Of a DNA stretch of 9,669 nucleotides, positions 243 to 9,057 are shown piece by piece. The first letter of the stretch is position 1. Each line of letters begins with the position of its first letter. The position numbers were made by a program, and so were the translations under genes. The stretch is from IMG/VR virus record IMGVR_UViG_2671180254_000012. One strand, written 5' to 3'. Below the pieces are notes generated by a model. It worked only from the letters and a program-made list of their open reading frames with translations, made no database searches and was not told the DNA's origin. Source of the DNA: a virus (taxonomy: Duplodnaviria; Heunggongvirae; Uroviricota; Caudoviricetes).

Positions 243-1325
243 TCATTTTCTCTGGCTGATCTTTACCGGATAACCATCCCGAAGATCAATTAAGTGCTCC
301 GGTTCAGAAGCAAACCATGCATAAGATCCCCACGCCAATTCTGGTATTGCCTTTTTAAAAGGCAGAGCACTTCTGTCCATAAATGCCGTAAGGAATGCAA
401 GATTTTTCTCGCTGAACCCAGCGTCAATAGCCAAATGAGTGAGAGTAACTTTTCGTTCCCTGTTTATAGGCCCATCTGTCGCAACTACTTCAGTGAAAAC
501 TACAAGCATGTCCGAACCCGTTCGGTCCTCTCCCAAATCAATCAAAATAATATCTGGAAGTGCTTTTGAGGCATCAATATTCAGCCCCAATGCTTTTGCC
601 AATACATCATCCTGAGCAACAACTTTATTCCCGGATTCAGACAACCAGAGCACAGTTGGATTCTTAAGAAAATTAGGAGCAAAAACTTCGATGACGGCCT
701 TAGCTATTGTACTTGACGGGCCCGGAGCTAAAGTTCTCTTCTCTCCATTTGGGAAAGTGACGACTACGGCATCAGCAGCAATCACTGCCCCTGATTTCAA
801 TAAACGCAACCTAGCAAGAGCGGCTTTGTTCAAATGATTTTCTTGCCAGGAACTTATTGCACTCAGCAGCGAATCTCCTTCAAGCCCGGCATCAAAGAGT
901 GCTGCAAAAGAGCGATTCAAACTGTAACGAGGACGAGAGGATGTGGTGGGTATACCTTTACGCTCAACAATTGCATTGCAAGGTATTAGGCCATTTTTTA
1001 TAGTTTCATCACGTATTGGCTCACGCGTATTTTCCGCATACCATGCATCAGCAGGCCTTATCTTTTGTTTAGAGAAAGTCATCTTTACCCAGCTTTCTCT
1101 GGACGCATCATCAGTAAGAGCAGCCTGCGAATCTCCCATACTTACAACCTGGCTGGGCCTTATCCATCGCCCCAGCCCCTCAACCGCACCAGCATAAAAC
1201 ATGACAAAAATTGTTTTTGCAGCTATTTCCCGAATTAAATATCCACGATTCTCAGTCCCTTCAGGGAAAATTAATTGTAATCTTTCCCGGATAACATTCA
1301 ATGGGGGAACAACAGGCAGATTCAT
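243..1325 (-). CDS. Type II restriction endonuclease, BsuBI/PstI family
   Basis: 360-aa ORF immediately downstream of and ATGA-overlapping (1322-1325) an N6-adenine methyltransferase gene; the protein resembles the BsuBI/PstI endonuclease family by overall recognition. Not verified by search. Confidence 0.65.
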   Translation of the reverse strand: MNLPVVPPLNVIRERLQLIFPEGTENRGYLIREIAAKTIFVMFYAGAVEGLGRWIRPSQVVSMGDSQAALTDDASRESWVKMTFSKQKIRPADAWYAENTREPIRDETIKNGLIPCNAIVERKGIPTTSSRPRYSLNRSFAALFDAGLEGDSLLSAISSWQENHLNKAALARLRLLKSGAVIAADAVVVTFPNGEKRTLAPGPSSTIAKAVIEVFAPNFLKNPTVLWLSESGNKVVAQDDVLAKALGLNIDASKALPDIILIDLGEDRTGSDMLVVFTEVVATDGPINRERKVTLTHLAIDAGFSEKNLAFLTAFMDRSALPFKKAIPELAWGSYAWFASEPEHLIDLRDGYPVKISQRK

Positions 1326-2796
1326 GCAATCATCACTCCATAGAAACCAGCGATAGTTCTCTCAATAATCCGTCTGTGGACGCCAGCATCAATTAACGAT
1401 TGAATCTCCATCACCTGCTCCAGAGAAGGCAACGGGATTGAATTCAATTCATAGGCCGAAACAGCAACACTTCCGCTTATACACCTGAACGCCCGATCGA
1501 CAACATGCGAATTAAGTAGCATATCAATAACATCAGGGCGAACCGCAGAGAACAATCCGTTTGAATATACAATATTAATATGGTTTTCAACTACTACGCC
1601 ACCAGTTTCATCTATAAATCCCTGAGGTAAAATTGCCGCTAAAATCCTTCTGTCCTGTTCCTTCGATGTTGTCCGCTGAACAAGCACACATTCAGATTTT
1701 GTCACAAGGAAACCCTGTTGTGGGGTTATATCGATATAGGGAACATGATTTTTTCTGTCTGCACTAAAACGAAAACCAGCTGAAGTTATTGATTCCGCCC
1801 AGACTAATGGGTAGCTATTTTTTCCTTTCGTCGTACGCAACTGCGACTTAAATCGATTCCAGACTAACTGACCTGTAGAGACTGAGTATCCCAGATCAGC
1901 TAAACGCGTAGACATCTGTTTTAATACATTAAGAAAACAGGCATCATCTTTAACGCGTGGCAAAAGCCACGTTGCTCCACCTTTTTCTATATCAACATTA
2001 CCTATTTTCTCAATTTTTGCTTTGTTCAACCCCTTAGGGACAAGTGAGGATACCTGGGCCCGAACTTTATGTTCTCCCGCCTTGAATGCTGTCAACATTG
2101 TTTCCTGGAGAACATCGTCAAAGACCCCATCCCTGTCAGTGACGAAATCAAGGGCATACGGAGTAGTTTTTTCGGTCAAAAGGGTTCGCAGCGCGGTGAA
2201 ATACTGCCCACCAAGAAAAGAAGTTGGCGTAAGAAATGCAATAACTCCTGTTTTCTCTTTAACCATGCGAACAGCTAAGTCGGTGAACAATCCATATAGA
2301 TTTGCATGACCAAATAACGAACGAGAATATTTTTCTCTCGTTTTAATATCGAGAGTGACACGTCCGTAAGGCGGATTCCCTACCACAAGATCATAACCAG
2401 AAAATTTATCTTGCTGAAGCGCATCAGCAACAATAATTGTATCTTCAGGCAATCTACGTTTTACCTTTACACATAGTGGCATTAGTACAGATTCGAGCAA
2501 TACCAAACTCATCCAAGCCGCAAATGGATCGATCTCTATCCCCTTTAAACGACGACTGATTCTCCTCAACATCCATTCAGGGGAAGACCCCTTGTCTTTT
2601 TTTAACATTCGAATGGCTACTGGTGCCAAAAATGCACCGCCACCACACGCAGGATCAATAACCGATGCATGAGAAAAATCAACACCAGACTTTTCAGCCA
2701 GGTCCAAGAGACGCGCTACCAAAGGTGGGGGGGTATAGTAAGCCCCCAATTCCGAACGGTAAGCGGATGGCAGCATTACCGTATAAATTGACCCAA
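1322..2796 (-). CDS. N6-adenine DNA methyltransferase, gamma-class (PstI/BsuBI-type M subunit); 5' end lies in the N-run
   Basis: Translation contains GAYYTPPP (motif X), DPACGGGAFL (SAM-binding motif I) and VVGNPPYGR (catalytic motif IV, NPPY) in the gamma-class order. Stop TGA at 1322-1324 overlaps the endonuclease ATG. The N-terminus is hidden by the gap at 2797-3058. Confidence 0.8.
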
Positions 2797-3058
2797 NNNN
2801 NNNNNNNNNNNNNNNNNNNNNNNNNNNNNNNNNNNNNNNNNNNNNNNNNNNNNNNNNNNNNNNNNNNNNNNNNNNNNNNNNNNNNNNNNNNNNNNNNNNN
2901 NNNNNNNNNNNNNNNNNNNNNNNNNNNNNNNNNNNNNNNNNNNNNNNNNNNNNNNNNNNNNNNNNNNNNNNNNNNNNNNNNNNNNNNNNNNNNNNNNNNN
3001 NNNNNNNNNNNNNNNNNNNNNNNNNNNNNNNNNNNNNNNNNNNNNNNNNNNNNNNNNN
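2797..3058. other. Run of N (262 nt), assembly gap or masked segment
   Basis: Directly visible in the sequence. Confidence 0.95.
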
Positions 3059-3140
3059 TGGCCATGGCTTTACAAGTTTGATATCTTTCCAGATTAGAAA
3101 ACTCATTATCTGTAAAAAAATCAAAATGTTGCACATTCAT
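3059..3140 (-). CDS. 5' part of a small ORF of unknown function upstream of the methyltransferase (3' end in gap); could instead be the methyltransferase N-terminus
   Basis: ATG at 3140 (minus) giving MNVQHFDFFTDNEFSNLERYQTCKAMA before the N-run; weak AGGA upstream. Alternative starts at 3176 and 3136. Frame continuity across the gap cannot be established. Confidence 0.3.
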
Positions 3141-4989: not shown

Positions 4990-5476
4990 TTACTTCACAA
5001 CTCCCGGAAAGCTGACATTTGAACGCCAGCTATCCCAGTTAAACGTCACCCACCGACAACCGTTCATGGTCATGCGGTCCATAATCCTCTCACCAAGAAG
5101 CGTGCTCATTGCGGCATGATTCAGGTTTGTTAACATCCCGACACTGCACAGTGATGCTGTCCGGCGATCAATTATCTGGTGCAATACCACCTGCTCGTTT
5201 TTCGTCTCCCGCTGAATGCCTATTTCATCCAGGACCAGCAAATCAACCCCGCAAAGCTCCTGTAAAAATTTTTCACCGGATTTGCCGTTGTCGTAGCTGT
5301 CATGCAACACGCTCATGACATCAGACTCGGTGACGATAATCACGCTGCGCCCCTTCGCCATCAGCCGGTTACCCATCGCCGCTGCAAGGTGATTTTTCCC
5401 GGTGCCGGTTTTACCGCTGAACACAAAATTCGTGCACCCGGTCATCAGTTCGTCAGCTATGGATTTGGCCTGGCTC
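4990..5476 (-). CDS. DnaC-like AAA+ helicase loader (phage replication protein), N-terminus in gap
   Basis: Walker A FSGKTGTGKNHLAAAMG and Walker B-like LLVLDEIG; the frame stays open upstream of the ATG at 5445 to the N-run edge (SQAKSIADEL...), so the true start is hidden. Confidence 0.75.
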
Positions 5477-5726
5477 NNNNNNNNNNNNNNNNNNNNNNNN
5501 NNNNNNNNNNNNNNNNNNNNNNNNNNNNNNNNNNNNNNNNNNNNNNNNNNNNNNNNNNNNNNNNNNNNNNNNNNNNNNNNNNNNNNNNNNNNNNNNNNNN
5601 NNNNNNNNNNNNNNNNNNNNNNNNNNNNNNNNNNNNNNNNNNNNNNNNNNNNNNNNNNNNNNNNNNNNNNNNNNNNNNNNNNNNNNNNNNNNNNNNNNNN
5701 NNNNNNNNNNNNNNNNNNNNNNNNNN
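5477..5726. other. Run of N (250 nt), assembly gap or masked segment
   Basis: Directly visible in the sequence. Confidence 0.95.
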
Positions 5727-6640
5727 TTCACACAACGCTGGTTGTTCGTGCCGCTTACCGGGAGCAACCAGGGGTTTTCAAAATTCCGGTCCGGCCCAAA
5801 AAACGTCGTCGCTCGCTGAACAAATTCCGTTCCCGCTTTCCCGGTCGCCGCCAGGTATCTCGCGTAACGCCTCACACCATCCAGCATGGTCTCTGGTGGC
5901 ACCCCCTCGCGCAATCTGGCCTTCCAGGCACTGAATGCGGATTTCTTCGGGTTTGCCCCGGCACGCAACGGGTATTCCCGCCAGACCTGTTCGAACACAT
6001 CCGGATAATCCACTCGTCCCACAGGCTGCCCGGTGTTTTCCGGGGCTACCCGATCGGCTTCCCGCTGAATGGCGGAATCGGCTTCAGGCTGCTGCAGTTG
6101 GAGTGATTGCTCCGGCCTTGCGGTCATCACCTGCTGCACAGCGCCCGAATCGGCTTTCAGCGCATACGCTGAATCGGCTTCCGGTGTCGAGCCTGCTGGC
6201 TGACCAGGATTGACGGTCTGAACATCCCCTGCCTGGTTCGTGGCGTTTTTTACGCCATGGACCATAGTGTTTTGATCTTCTTTATCTGTATCTTTATCTG
6301 TATCTGTCGTGACTCGTCGTGACATGTGCGTGACATTTCGTGACGCGCCGTGACAATCGCCATTTTGTTCCCGCTTTCTTTCCCTCTCTCGCTGCGCCCT
6401 CTTGCGCTCTGCAGGAGATTTTGCGGTTTGCGAAATATTGCCGTTGTCCTCTTTAAGCACCTGGCGTTTTTCCCATCCAGTGATTAAATCACCATCAAGT
6501 ACCCGCCCCTGCATCGTCTGCAAAATTGAATCAATTACCTCTTCTGTCACGTCGAGCGCACTTGCCAAATCTTCTGTCGTGACATCAATGTGACCTCGCG
6601 TGACATTTCGTGACGCGCTCACCAGGAGGTGGATATACAC
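5727..6640 (-). CDS. Phage replication initiator (O-like / YdaU-like replisome organiser), both ends in gaps
   Basis: Open frame between two N-runs; N-terminal DNA-binding-like region, low-complexity acidic linker (TDTDKDTDKED, PEADSA repeats) and conserved C-terminal region (DYPDVFEQVWREYPLRAGANPKK...TTFFGPDRNFENPW). Sits between YdaT-like and DnaC-like genes as in Rac-type replication modules. Contains iteron-like DNA repeats. Confidence 0.6.
6053..6181. repeat. Four copies of (GA)ATCGGCTT(C/T) in the initiator linker-coding region
   Basis: Copies beginning at 6053, 6077, 6149 and 6173 (spacings 24, 72, 24 bp); they encode the EADS/KADS peptide repeats of the initiator. Confidence 0.45.
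6281..6354. repeat. Iteron-like array: two tandem 12-mers (TTTATCTGTATC) followed by five helically phased CGTGAC repeats; candidate replication origin
   Basis: 12-mers at 6281-6292 and 6293-6304; CGTGAC at 6308, 6318, 6329, 6339 and 6349 (spacings 10, 11, 10, 10 bp); AT-rich tract immediately adjacent (about 6265-6305). Confidence 0.45.
6579..6618. repeat. Second phased GTGAC array; includes an exact 21-bp copy of a segment of the first array
   Basis: GTGAC at 6579, 6590, 6600 and 6610 (spacings 11, 10, 10 bp); GCGTGACATTTCGTGACGCGC at 6598-6618 is identical to 6328-6348. Confidence 0.45.
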
Positions 6641-6895
6641 NNNNNNNNNNNNNNNNNNNNNNNNNNNNNNNNNNNNNNNNNNNNNNNNNNNNNNNNNNNN
6701 NNNNNNNNNNNNNNNNNNNNNNNNNNNNNNNNNNNNNNNNNNNNNNNNNNNNNNNNNNNNNNNNNNNNNNNNNNNNNNNNNNNNNNNNNNNNNNNNNNNN
6801 NNNNNNNNNNNNNNNNNNNNNNNNNNNNNNNNNNNNNNNNNNNNNNNNNNNNNNNNNNNNNNNNNNNNNNNNNNNNNNNNNNNNNNNNNNNNNNN
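6641..6895. other. Run of N (255 nt), assembly gap or masked segment
   Basis: Directly visible in the sequence. Confidence 0.95.
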
Positions 6896-7249
6896 GACAA
6901 AATCATCAGCGTCTCTCACCAGTCGTTCATGCGTCTCCACCAGTTCCCGAAAATAAGCTGAACTGTGGCTGCGCATTCGAGCCACCAGCGGAGGTGGCAT
7001 TGCCCTTTCGATCGCAGGTAACAACGCCTGAATTTTTTCAACAGCGTCAGGGGTGTCTTTATCCAGCCAACGGAAAATCTTTTGGGTGTTGAGATAAAGC
7101 GTGTTGTGCTTGCTGTCGTTATGCAGAACCGGAAACGTCATTCCCAGTTCGAAATAAACCCTGGTTATTTCAGCTGCCGGAACTTTTTCACCGTCCGGAT
7201 GCGCCCAGGCTTTCATCGCCATGCGGATGTGTTCATGCTTGATTTTCAT
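6896..7249 (-). CDS. ydaT: YdaT-like protein (Rac-prophage-type, proposed CII-like regulator/toxin), C-terminus in gap
   Basis: N-terminus MKIKHEHIRMAMKAWAHPDGEKVPAAEITR... recalled as the YdaT family; ATG at 7249 overlaps the stop of the upstream HTH gene in an ATGA arrangement. Confidence 0.6.
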
Positions 7250-7509
7250 GAATCAACCCCCGCCGATGGTTGTGTGTTAGCCTGAAACTCAGCAGGCAAG
7301 CCGTCAGTTGGGTTGGGGTAGGTTTTACTGTCAATCTCATGTGGGGTCACCACCCATCCCGTTGCTTCACACCAACGTAATATTTTTTCTCCTGTAAGTT
7401 TTGCACGCCCCGTTATAACGTGGCTGACCATCCCTTGGGATGCGCCAACAATCTCAGCAAATGAACTCTGGGTTATATGAAAATGATGCAAATATTCTCC
7501 AAGATTCAT
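7246..7509 (-). CDS. Cro/YdaS-like HTH DNA-binding protein (first gene of the rightward early operon)
   Basis: ATG at 7509 with AGGGCGGA RBS; HTH segment SSFAEIVGASQGMVSHVITG; divergent from the repressor gene; stop overlaps the YdaT-like start. The longest ORF starts at a TTG at 7536. Confidence 0.6.
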   Translation of the reverse strand: MNLGEYLHHFHITQSSFAEIVGASQGMVSHVITGRAKLTGEKILRWCEATGWVVTPHEIDSKTYPNPTDGLPAEFQANTQPSAGVDS

Positions 7510-7545
7510 AATCCGCCCTATGTGATGTGTTACCAATGCATAATT

Positions 7546-7585
7546 AATAGCACTGTTATTTTTAAAAGTAAATAGTGATACTATT
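7546..7585. promoter_or_regulatory. OR-like operator region: two 15-bp inverted-repeat sites (AATAG-N5-YTATT) between the divergent repressor and cro-like genes
   Basis: AATAGTGATACTATT at 7571-7585 (6-bp arms AATAGT/ACTATT, 3-bp spacer) and the imperfect AATAGCACTGTTATT at 7546-7560, 25 bp centre to centre; on the minus strand a TTGAAA -35-like hexamer flanks the palindrome. Confidence 0.45.
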
Positions 7586-7620
7586 TCAAAGTGATTAGCA
7601 ATCTTATTAGAATTGGATGT

Positions 7621-8121
7621 ATGAAAAGAAAATCATTGTCAGACACCGACCTCAACGCCGCCAGAAGACTGAAAGAAATCTGGATGGCAAAGAAATCTCA
7701 GTTGGGATTGACTCAGGAACGTGCGGCGGAAATTATGGGGTTTTCAACACAAGGGGCGGTAAGTCACTACCTAAATGGTCAAACCCCACTAAACCTTGAG
7801 GCTGTTCTAAAGTTTGCTGGCTTACTGAAAGTTCCCCCTGAGTCAATCAGGCCAGACATGGTAGATTTGCTGCAAATTGCAAGGATGTATTGTCGAGAAC
7901 CACAGCAAGATAACATAGTCGCATTACCAGCAGACACAGAACAAACAGAGGATGAACTACCGTTTGCCGTAGAGCCGATGGAACGAGATTTAATCCATAC
8001 GTTCAGAGCTTTTCCGAAAGAAGATCAAGAACACATGCTTCAGGAGATGAAAGATAAAAAAGAATCAATGGATCGTACGGTTGCGCGGTGGTTAGCTGCA
8101 CAAAAAGGCCGTCGCGCCTAA
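7621..8121 (+). CDS. cI-like prophage repressor (RacR/PaaR2-like), HTH XRE-type N-terminal domain, no recognisable LexA-type peptidase domain
   Basis: ATG at 7621 (the track start at 7591 is a GTG); HTH LGLTQERAAEIMGFSTQGAVSHYLNG; divergent to the cro-like gene; no obvious SD, so possibly a leaderless or short-leader transcript as for lambda cI from pRM. Confidence 0.65.
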   Translation: MKRKSLSDTDLNAARRLKEIWMAKKSQLGLTQERAAEIMGFSTQGAVSHYLNGQTPLNLEAVLKFAGLLKVPPESIRPDMVDLLQIARMYCREPQQDNIVALPADTEQTEDELPFAVEPMERDLIHTFRAFPKEDQEHMLQEMKDKKESMDRTVARWLAAQKGRRA

Positions 8122-8140: not shown

Positions 8141-8335
8141 ATGAGTACAGTCCTTTCCCCAATGGTTTCAGAATTTGAGACAGTTGAGCAAGAAAATAGT
8201 TACAACGAATGGCTGCGGGCCAAAGTAGCAGCAAGCCTCGCGGATCCCCGCCCGGCGATTCCGCATGATGAGGTAATGGCGGAAATGGAACAAATTATTG
8301 CCCAAATTGCTGCTGCAACTCACAGAGGTGAATAA
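8141..8335 (+). CDS. paaA2: PaaA2-like antitoxin (ParE-associated antitoxin)
   Basis: 64-aa ORF with AGAGGAGA RBS; sequence ...SPMVSEFETVEQENSYNEWLRAKVAASLADPRPAIPHDEV... recalled as close to E. coli O157 PaaA2; stop TAA overlaps the toxin ATG by 1 nt. Confidence 0.65.
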   Translation: MSTVLSPMVSEFETVEQENSYNEWLRAKVAASLADPRPAIPHDEVMAEMEQIIAQIAAATHRGE

Positions 8336-8625
8336 TGTTACCCGTTTTATGGCTACCATCTGCTCGTGATGATTTGCGCCAGATCGTAGCCTACATAGCT
8401 AAAGAAAATCCCGCGGCAGCACGCAGAATGAAAATTCGAATTGAAACATCCGTTTTGCCGCTCACAGAGCATCCTTACCTGTATCCTCCAAGCGAGCGAG
8501 TTCTTGGTCTTCGTGAAATTGTAACTCATCCTAACTACATCATCCTTTACCGAGTAACAGCATCAAGCATAGAAGTAGTAAATATTGTGCATTCTCGAAG
8601 ACAGTATCCAGGCAAAAACAGTTAA
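8335..8625 (+). CDS. parE2: ParE/RelE-family toxin (ParE2-like)
   Basis: 96-aa ORF MLPVLWLPSARDDL...EHPYLYPPSERVLGLREIVTHPNYIILYRV...; GAGGTG RBS; translationally coupled to the upstream antitoxin. Confidence 0.7.
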   Translation: MLPVLWLPSARDDLRQIVAYIAKENPAAARRMKIRIETSVLPLTEHPYLYPPSERVLGLREIVTHPNYIILYRVTASSIEVVNIVHSRRQYPGKNS

Positions 8626-8641
8626 TTATTCCCGCCGACAG

Positions 8642-8663
8642 AACCACCTTAGGGTGGTTTTTT
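8642..8663 (+). terminator. Rho-independent terminator candidate after the toxin gene
   Basis: AACCACC-TTAG-GGTGGTT stem-loop followed by TTTTTT, 17 nt after the parE2-like stop. Confidence 0.5.
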
Positions 8664-8681
8664 CTTGCCCCAACAAAAAAC

Positions 8682-8723
8682 AATAGCGATGCTATTTACA
8701 TCAAAAAAAATAATGATGCTATT
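8682..8723. promoter_or_regulatory. OL-like operator region: perfect 15-bp inverted repeat AATAGCGATGCTATT plus a second imperfect site
   Basis: AATAGCGATGCTATT at 8682-8696 (6-bp arms, 3-bp spacer GAT) and AATAATGATGCTATT at 8709-8723, 27 bp centre to centre; same motif family as 7546-7585; upstream of the ydaF-like gene. Confidence 0.45.
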
Positions 8724-8904
8724 GTTTCAGGCGTCAACCCACCCCGCCCCACAGAATGCAGGGCAATACTTCGAGTTACCAGACAGTGGTCAGGGGTTAA
8801 GTAGCCAGCCCGAGGCGTAAGAACATGACGGCAGGGTTCAATCTTTAACTATGCAGCAGGTTTTTTGTTCCGCCACCCCGGCGTTAAGGGGAAATGAGGT
8901 CAGC

Positions 8905-9057
8905 ATGGATACTATCGATCTTGGCAACAACGAATCTCTGGTGTGCGGCGTGTTCCCTAACCAGGATGGAACGTTTACCGCCATGACGTATACCAAAAGC
9001 AAAACGTTTAAAACCGAATCTGGCGCGCGTTGCTGGTTAGCCAGAAACACTGACTGA
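8905..9057 (+). CDS. Small YdaF-like protein (DUF1391-type, Rac prophage family)
   Basis: ATG at 8905 with GAGG RBS; MDTIDLGNNESLVCGVFPNQDGTFTAMTYTKSKTFKTESGARCWLARNTD recalled as similar to Rac YdaF; the track ORF begins earlier at 8851 without an SD. Confidence 0.5.
   Translation: MDTIDLGNNESLVCGVFPNQDGTFTAMTYTKSKTFKTESGARCWLARNTD

Follow-up and report, generated by a model that had tools for sequence, protein, structure and literature searches.

Fifteen-base-pair inverted repeats as very probable operators of a lambda-type switch in a Shigella/Escherichia coli prophage

Results

The DNA analyzed here is a 9,669-nucleotide (nt) stretch of a tailed-phage genome (Caudoviricetes; IMG/VR record IMGVR_UViG_2671180254_000012), referred to below as the window. 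At its core a repressor gene and a gene for a Cro-like helix-turn-helix (HTH) protein of the YdaS family diverge from a common 111-bp region (ATG 7509 on the minus strand to ATG 7621 on the plus strand), which holds three sites of one 15-bp inverted repeat. Two further sites lie 1.1 kb away, between the probable terminator of the repressor operon and the early-left ydfA operon, where a left operator (OL) with its promoter PL would be expected. Read from left to right, the order is lambda's reversed: P, O, cII-like, cro-like, right operator (OR), cI-like, accessory genes, OL/PL and early-left genes (Table 1). Judging from sequence, a prophage of Shigella/E. coli very probably uses the 15-bp sites as operators in a bistable switch of the lambda type. 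An initial annotation had described the two repeats OR1 and OR2, one with 6-bp arms and a 3-bp spacer and the other an imperfect copy 25 bp away, their place in the 111-bp divergent region and a recurrence of the motif at 8682-8723. All of this was confirmed, the recurrence consisting of the two sites AATAGCGATGCTATT and AATAATGATGCTATT.

Table 1. Features of the window at and around the divergent promoter region.
Feature	Position	Strand	Sequence or motif	Details
ydaT (functional analogue of cII), visible N-terminal part	6896-7249	minus		PF06254, E=5e-9
YdaT (CII-analogue) operator	7239-7256		TTGATTTTCATGAATCAA	TTGATT-N6-AATCAA, perfect match
Cro-like YdaS-family HTH protein	7246-7509	minus		87 amino acids
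Candidate PR	7544-7572	minus	TTTACT (7572-7567), 17-nt spacer, TGcTATTAA (7552-7544)	read by eye
OR1	7546-7560		AATAGCACTGTTATT	overlaps -10 of candidate PR
OR2	7571-7585		AATAGTGATACTATT	perfect palindrome, 6-bp arms and 3-bp spacer
Candidate PRM	7585-7613	plus	TTCAAA (7585-7590), 17-nt spacer, TAGAAT (7608-7613)	called by scanner
OR3	7594-7608		ATTAGCAATCTTATT	weakest of the five sites, 2 mismatches
Repressor	7621-8121	plus		166 amino acids; Pfam HTH_3 and HTH_31 only
PaaA2-family antitoxin	8141-8335	plus		PF21217, 3e-23; PDB 3zbe, 1.4e-23
ParE2-family toxin	8335-8625	plus		PF05016, 1.8e-17; PDB 5cw7, 6.7e-37
Terminator-like hairpin and T-tract	8640-8668	plus		-15.1 kcal/mol, z=-3.5; missed by simple terminator scan
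OL2	8682-8696		AATAGCGATGCTATT	perfect; overlaps -35 of candidate PL
Candidate PL	8695-8725	plus	TTTACA (8695-8700), 19-nt spacer, TGcTATTGT (8717-8725)	read by eye
OL1	8709-8723		AATAATGATGCTATT	overlaps -10 of candidate PL
C-rich leader of ydfA operon	8735-8894	plus	begins CAACCCACCCCGCCCCACAGAA	conserved
ydfA (DUF1391), first gene of the operon assigned to PL	8905-9057	plus

The consensus of the sites is AATA(G/A)(C/T)-N3-(G/A)(C/T)TATT. A search of the window for AATAG-N5-CTATT (AATAGNNNNNCTATT) with at most one mismatch returned four matches where 0.15 were expected; all four were confined to the two intergenic regions, and none of 200 dinucleotide shuffles attained this number. With up to two mismatches there were seven matches against 3.8 expected, a count that is not significant alone, and the search added the third site of the divergent region, OR3. 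We therefore placed weight on the one-mismatch test and on conservation, and the OR3 call rests on comparative evidence. An E. coli relative that is 98.9% identical (locus L001) carries AATAGCGATGCTATT at OR2 in place of the window's AATAGTGATACTATT. This change is symmetric (T...A to C...G; window 7576 and 7580, L001 8374 and 8378) and keeps the palindrome, and across the OR region of about 120 bp the two sequences differ by only one more substitution.

The register of the sites with promoter-like hexamers gave them their names. The candidate PR would drive ydaS, ydaT and the replication genes, and the candidate PL would drive ydfA and the early-left operon. The two are built alike, with the first base of the -35 at distal-site position 14 and that of the -10 at proximal-site position 12. 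OR2 thus overlaps the -35 of PR, and it abuts the -35 of the candidate promoter for repressor maintenance (PRM), whose hexamers begin at position 15 of OR2 and position 15 of OR3, so that OR3 is placed between them. The overlap of the repeats with a -35/-10 arrangement for the cro-like operon, proposed earlier, holds. Center-to-center distances within OR are 25 and 23 bp, and the repressor ATG is 43 bp downstream of the OR2 center. With the -10 of PRM ending 7 nt before this ATG, translation probably starts on a leaderless mRNA; a usable Shine-Dalgarno sequence is not in evidence. Leaderless mRNA has been shown experimentally for paaR2 and lambda cI (PMC8630535). One scanner hit on the minus strand (8737-8710) was in the wrong orientation and not conserved, and was not used.

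The A-run between OL2 and OL1 (8697-8708) is two A's longer in the window than in L001 (9495-9504). The OL centers are accordingly 27 bp apart in the window and 25 bp apart in L001, with 24-26 bp in six other lineages. Unless they are a sequencing error in the homopolymer, the two additional bases may weaken PL or affect cooperative binding.

Over residues 2-81 the repressor is homologous to the DNA-binding domain at the N terminus of lambda repressor (PDB 1lmb, E=2.9e-9), and both have a basic N-terminal arm, MKRKSL in the window repressor and STKKKPL in lambda. In the AlphaFold model a five-helix HTH domain (residues 1 to ~91) is joined by a disordered linker (92-112) to a helical C-terminal domain (~119-166), a hairpin with a long helix at 133-165. 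The latter is related to PaaR2, the repressor of the E. coli O157:H7 cryptic prophage CP-933P: BLASTP gave 52% identity over the last 44 residues (E=5e-15) and no similarity beyond the C-terminal domain. No S24 peptidase domain, the RecA-cleavable type, was found in the repressor, to which Pfam assigns HTH families only. Such a self-cleaving C-terminal domain is present in the repressors of lambda, 434 and P22 and is not universal among lambdoid phages. PaaR2 is described in the literature as octameric in solution and as unresponsive to mitomycin C for want of a cleavage domain; by analogy, the window repressor is probably octameric and unresponsive as well.

Homologues of the repressor span 99% to 45% identity, and none of those of the N-terminal domain departs from the presumed recognition helix, TQGAVSHYLN. 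The presumed helix of YdaS, QGMVSHV, is kept in all loci with AATAG-type operators, and reads QQVVSRW in locus L007. In an alternative reading, the sites would be bound mainly or only by the Cro-like YdaS, with the 166-amino-acid protein recognizing something else. YdaS is itself an HTH protein whose presumed helix shifts with the operator type just like that of the repressor, and sequence analysis does not separate the two. However, the repressor has the lambda-cI-homologous domain, with a presumed helix that is fully conserved in all motif-carrying loci, and the OL pair adjoins a promoter that needs silencing in the lysogen, which fits control by the repressor. In both lambda and CP-933P, moreover, the two proteins bind overlapping sites (PMC8630535). 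We consider it unlikely that YdaS is the main or sole ligand; by analogy with lambda and CP-933P, repressor and YdaS probably both bind the operators.

We then compared related loci from E. coli (L002-L004, 78% identity), Salmonella diarizonae (L005-L006, 47%), metagenomes, where the repressor has two HTH domains in tandem (L009-L010), Citrobacter braakii (L011), Yersinia frederiksenii (L012) and Rouxiella aceris (L013). A contig scan supplied three useful new lineages, and its 11 other hits, generic HTH proteins from Firmicutes and others, served as negative controls. Sites were located with a position weight matrix built from the five sites of the window alone, at a cut-off of 9 bits. In five further lineages, namely E. 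coli (78%), the tandem-HTH metagenome, Citrobacter, Yersinia and Rouxiella, the matrix found a downstream pair as well as three sites ahead of the repressor gene, at about -75, -50 and -27 relative to its ATG. The -75 site was found in L001, L002, L009, L011, L012 and L013, and the equivalent of OR3 is conserved in position, at -27 or -26, in related loci. For the Salmonella locus (47% identity), no more than two sites, those at -50 and -26, exceeded 9 bits, and the rest were read by eye. By contrast, 71 kb of control loci, including L007 and L008, which have the same flanks, gave no matrix hit of 12 bits or more. Overall, each of the seven lineages with this N-terminal domain has the motif, and the same-flank loci L007, L008, L029 and L030 lack it.

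The 30 sites from the six non-window lineages are almost invariant at positions 1, 3 and 4 and at the mirror positions, with (G/A)(C/T) at positions 5-6 and a loosely A/T-rich center. The sequence between sites diverges and site centers and spacers drift from lineage to lineage, whereas the register of the promoter hexamers relative to the sites is constant in all seven, and the distance from the OR2 center to the ATG is 42-43 bp in every one of them. PR reads TTTACN or TTGACN followed by TATTAA, TATTGA, TAATAT or TAGTAT. The -35 of PL is TTTACA or TTGACN in all seven, with a -10 of TATTGT in six and TATTTT in L011, and the PRM geometry is retained in related loci. These data bear on a simpler explanation, in which the repeats would be AT-rich promoter sequence shared by descent or chance, or sites for host nucleoid proteins, with no dedicated regulator. 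The sites are indeed AT-rich and coincide in part with promoter hexamers, so that their conservation could be partly promoter-driven, and several of the compared loci are related prophages. Nevertheless, the dyad-symmetric outer bases are kept on both arms, including the arm outside the promoter hexamer, while the sequence between sites diverges; OR2 has changed by a symmetric pair of bases between near-identical copies; and the motif is missing from loci with homologous flanks and promoters at the same positions but other DNA-binding domains. An origin without a dedicated regulator therefore appears very improbable.

The slot behind the repressor gene varies in content. It holds PaaA2 and ParE genes in the window (8141-8625) and in L002, HigB and an HTH antitoxin in the Salmonella locus L005 (3112-3839), and HipA_2 and DUF3037 genes in the tandem-HTH loci (L009 3287-4860). 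Lambda carries rexAB in this slot. Since the repeats stand ahead of an operon with a toxin-antitoxin pair among its genes, they could in principle be conventional type II autoregulatory operators bound by a PaaA-ParE complex. As far as sequence can tell, this reading has hardly any likelihood, as the operator layout is unchanged where the slot is occupied by HigB/HigA or by HipA_2 and DUF3037, and the motif is absent from loci that keep PaaA2-ParE but have another repressor DNA-binding domain. PaaA2, in addition, lacks a DNA-binding domain (PMC8630535).

Operators of the repressor-YdaS switch remain the preferred reading of the repeats. BLAST of the window against PaaR2-type loci showed homology that covers ydaT and reaches into the 3' portion of ydaS, ending at ~7320-7360. 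From ~7982-7996, within the repressor gene, it is found again and extends over the toxin-antitoxin genes. The OL sites fall in a local patch without homology, beyond which, from 8735 on, identity is again strong. Because homology to other immunity types breaks and resumes at these points, the specificity unit, as drawn from these alignments, is the ydaS HTH region, OR and the repressor N-terminal domain (~7321-7996) plus the OL patch. At least four specificity units occur on the same scaffold: PaaR2 with GTTTAGT repeats, the O157:H7 locus L029 with AAAAACTGT/ACAGTTTTT repeats (2000-2070 and 3030-3075), L007 and L028 with ACACTTTTAAAGTTA-type repeats (L007 2410-2480 and 3450-3500), and the window type. 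The L029 repeats stand beside TTGACA and TATTGT-like hexamers at the OL/PL position. We found no characterization of the L029 or L007/L028 immunity types. Other candidates for PaaR2 itself were discarded. The 132-amino-acid proteins P0042 and P0043 were ruled out because their loci, L007 and L028, have other repeats and PaaR2 starts MQKKE; L029 was ruled out as a third type, its protein starting MMSALEV. The genuine PaaR2 was recovered from phage Evi via PaaA2. It is 123 amino acids long, and ahead of it lies a 97-bp intergenic region with GTTTAGTG repeats.

The pattern hints at a way in which specificity could change. The PaaR family might gain new immunity specificities by swapping a compact cassette made of the Cro HTH region, OR, the repressor DNA-binding domain and the matching OL patch. 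The recombination joints would lie inside both genes, while the C-terminal oligomerization domain, the YdaT arm with its promoter for repressor establishment (PRE), the toxin-antitoxin slot and the PL leader stay constant. We offer this as a tentative suggestion that is open to considerable doubt. Relatives of 244 amino acids (L009 2501-3235, L010 1512-2246; P0013-P0023) have two different HTH domains in tandem: a lambda-cI-like HTH, then an L007/P0043-like HTH, then the PaaR-type C-terminal domain. Their loci contain AATAG-type sites only, in the same three-plus-two layout, and a search there for L007-type operator words found none. These relatives could be recombination intermediates, or dual-specificity repressors conferring immunity against two phage groups that are otherwise heteroimmune.

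Another arm of the switch is constant across types, unlike the Cro-like helix. The YdaT operator sits on the 4-bp overlap of the ydaS stop and the ydaT start, and it is identical in phage Evi, which is of the CP-933P type, in L028 and in L029 (O157:H7), with 1-2 mismatches in other loci. TTGATT-N6-AATCAA is OM, the footprinted high-affinity YdaT site of CP-933P (PMC9986795), and by analogy the copy in the window is presumed to be a PRE-type control site, implying a PRE-like route to repressor synthesis. The remainder of ydaT falls in a masked run of N (6641-6895); two more such runs lie at 2797-3058 and 5477-5726, each about 250-260 bp long, and they create artificial long open reading frames. 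One of these, at 5453-7249, is an artificial fusion of YdaT with an O-like replication protein. Beyond ydaT on the minus strand lie O-like and then DnaC/P-like replication genes. The left end of the window carries, also on the minus strand, a BsuBI/PstI-family restriction endonuclease gene (243-1325) and a partly masked Eco57I/N6-type DNA methyltransferase gene (1322-3136). In Stx2 phage Lyz12581Vzw (L025) a methyltransferase gene and then a restriction endonuclease gene annotated as BsuBI adjoin cI.

On the other side, the hairpin at 8640-8668 probably ends the repressor-paaA-parE operon. The leader behind PL shares 93.8% identity with its counterpart in phage Evi, is present in thousands of E. 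coli records whatever the immunity type, and forms the right-hand limit of immunity-specific DNA. The gene that follows it is ydfA, an arrangement also seen in the dicBF operon of Qin. An Rfam search of the window, the leader included, matched no family.

We also looked at how widely this type is distributed. The specificity unit is present in 72 of 5,426 complete E. coli genomes (~1.3%), with two copies ~99% identical to the window and 70 at 77-79%, O104:H4 and O145:H28 strains among them. The annotation is always merely 'helix-turn-helix domain-containing protein'. Megablast and sensitive blastn searches of 50,697 phage records found no specificity unit of this type at the DNA level. An identical repressor protein is named from Shigella sonnei, which is probably the host of the prophage, with near-identical copies in E. 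coli. In the closest E. coli copy (L001 14850-15900) the integrase is annotated as frameshifted, beside tRNA-Ser and mtfA.

Discussion

The sites with their statistics, the way they line up with promoter-like hexamers, the homologies of the proteins and the conservation across lineages lead us to infer a scheme of binding, order of site filling, activation, looping and leaderless start. Repressor dimers would bind OR1 and OR2 through the lambda-cI-like HTH domain, and since the -10 of PR starts in OR1 and its -35 in OR2, their occupancy would block PR and leave ydaS, ydaT and the replication genes silent. The dimer at OR2, centered ~42-43 bp upstream of the PRM start, could at the same time stimulate PRM, which would transcribe a leaderless repressor mRNA along with paaA-parE. 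Once repressor reached a high concentration, it would also fill OR3, the weak site between the hexamers of PRM, and so turn this promoter off. OL1 and OL2 cover PL, and their occupancy would keep the ydfA early-left operon off. The PaaR2-type helical C-terminal domain probably provides higher-order oligomerization, which would allow cooperative binding and possibly looping between OR and OL. YdaS, with a presumed helix (QGMVSHV) similar to that of the repressor (QGAVSHY), probably binds the same sites with the opposite preference, and YdaT would act at its own operator, so that repressor synthesis begins from a PRE-like promoter.

Several points weigh against this scheme. Sequence does not assign the sites to one or the other of the two HTH proteins, and the placement of the recognition helix is taken from the alignment with lambda cI and from the model. 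The OR3 equivalent is degenerate in the Yersinia and Rouxiella loci. Among the promoters, a simple promoter scanner called PRM and neither PR nor PL, passing over these two because of their weak -10 hexamers (TATTAA and TATTGT, that of PR without the final T). The 19-nt spacer of PL in the window is poor for sigma-70; the spacer is 17 nt in the nearest relative, L001, 2 nt shorter. Finally, the prophage may be cryptic, given the frameshifted integrase of the closest E. coli copy, with the switch perhaps ruling only a remnant.

The lambdoid-switch layout that had been proposed initially is nonetheless supported by the cI-homologous repressor, the divergent YdaS/Cro partner and the promoter overlap in both directions, as well as by the second cluster at the OL/PL place and by sites that track the DNA-binding domain in seven lineages. 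Every element of the initial reading that is accessible to sequence analysis was borne out. The initial annotation missed the third OR site over PRM, the likely leaderless start, the YdaT operator, the absence of a RecA-cleavable domain and the PaaR2-type C-terminal domain, and it was unaware of the experimental dissection of CP-933P (PMC8630535).

The kind of system is known, having been dissected experimentally in the sister prophage CP-933P, and the layout is ordinary, with nothing in it to surprise a phage biologist. What is new is a lambda-cI-like DNA-binding domain on a PaaR2-type C-terminal domain, paired with 15-bp AATAGC-N3-GCTATT operators; no description of this pairing was found in the literature searched. 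For an immunity type labeled in databases as no more than an HTH protein, and present in prophages of E. coli, Shigella, Citrobacter, Yersinia, Rouxiella and Salmonella, our analysis defines an operator motif, probable promoters and a specificity segment. It also brings out a natural domain-swap series, in which the C-terminal domain and the flanks are constant while DNA-binding domains and operator sets come in at least four versions, and which could be used to study how specificity changes with cooperativity kept in lambdoid switches. Under the control of the switch would be a module with a ParE toxin and probably also an operon for a dicB-type inhibitor of cell division, so that it bears on host physiology.

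Among phage proteins, the closest to the N-terminal domain are the cI of the Stx2-phage Lyz12581Vzw group (52%), a protein of ~239 amino acids annotated in RefSeq as a LexA family regulator, and the 'DicA' of Rac-SA53 (57%). Their presumed recognition helices, TQGAVSQLLN and SQGTVSQYLN, are similar to that of the window repressor, and related dyad sites (AATAGTCTAGCTATT, ATTAGCCTCACTAAT) stand at matching positions, whereas the C-terminal parts differ. Because these sites score low with the window matrix (9-12 bits), both groups are probably heteroimmune. No published operator mapping for either protein was found in the literature searched.

Lambda itself shares with the window a homologous repressor DNA-binding domain with a basic arm and three OR sites, of which OR1 and OR2 lie over PR and OR3 over PRM. 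The OR centers of lambda are spaced 24 and 23 bp apart, against 25 and 23 bp in the window, and in both OR2 is centered near -42 of PRM; the repressor message, leaderless in lambda, is predicted to be so here. Both have a distant OL over PL, 2.4 kb from OR in lambda and 1.1 kb in the window, and accessory genes after the repressor, rexAB in one and a toxin-antitoxin pair in the other. On the other hand, the operators of lambda are 17 bp long and of the TATCACCGC type, against 15 bp here, and lambda has three OL sites where two are recognizable in the window. A short helical PaaR2-type C-terminal domain replaces the RecA-cleavable S24 domain, and YdaS- and YdaT-family proteins take the parts of Cro and CII.

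The closest studied system is the PaaR2/YdaS/YdaT switch of CP-933P, also called Sp12, in E. coli O157:H7. There, paaR2-paaA2-parE2 and ydaS-ydaT form a cI/Cro/CII-like bistable switch with OR, OL/PL and PRE, as established by electrophoretic mobility shift assays, footprinting, 5' RACE and reporter fusions (Jurenas et al. 2021, PMC8630535); YdaT was studied by Prolic-Kalinsek et al. 2023 (PMC9986795). The two systems differ in the module that reads the operators. The N-terminal domain of PaaR2 (PDB 7nkv) is unrelated to the lambda-cI-like domain of the window repressor, and the HTH region of ydaS is different too. The CP-933P operators are 18-bp palindromes on GTTTAGTAA, OR holding four inverted repeats and OL three sites (PMC8630535), in contrast to the window's three OR and two OL sites of 15 bp, and the intergenic region measures 97 bp in the CP-933P type and 111 bp in the window. 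Repeats of the GTTTAGTAA type were present in OR and OL of phage Evi and not seen in the OR and OL regions of the window. Outside this module the two systems correspond. They have in common the order P-like, O-like, ydaT, ydaS, OR, repressor, paaA, parE, OL/PL and ydfA, with a pair of the PaaA2 and ParE2 families and an identical YdaT operator at the ydaS/ydaT junction. The C-terminal domains of the repressors are homologous and the S24 cleavage domain is absent from both, and in each a -10 is placed for a leaderless repressor mRNA and a conserved leader follows PL.

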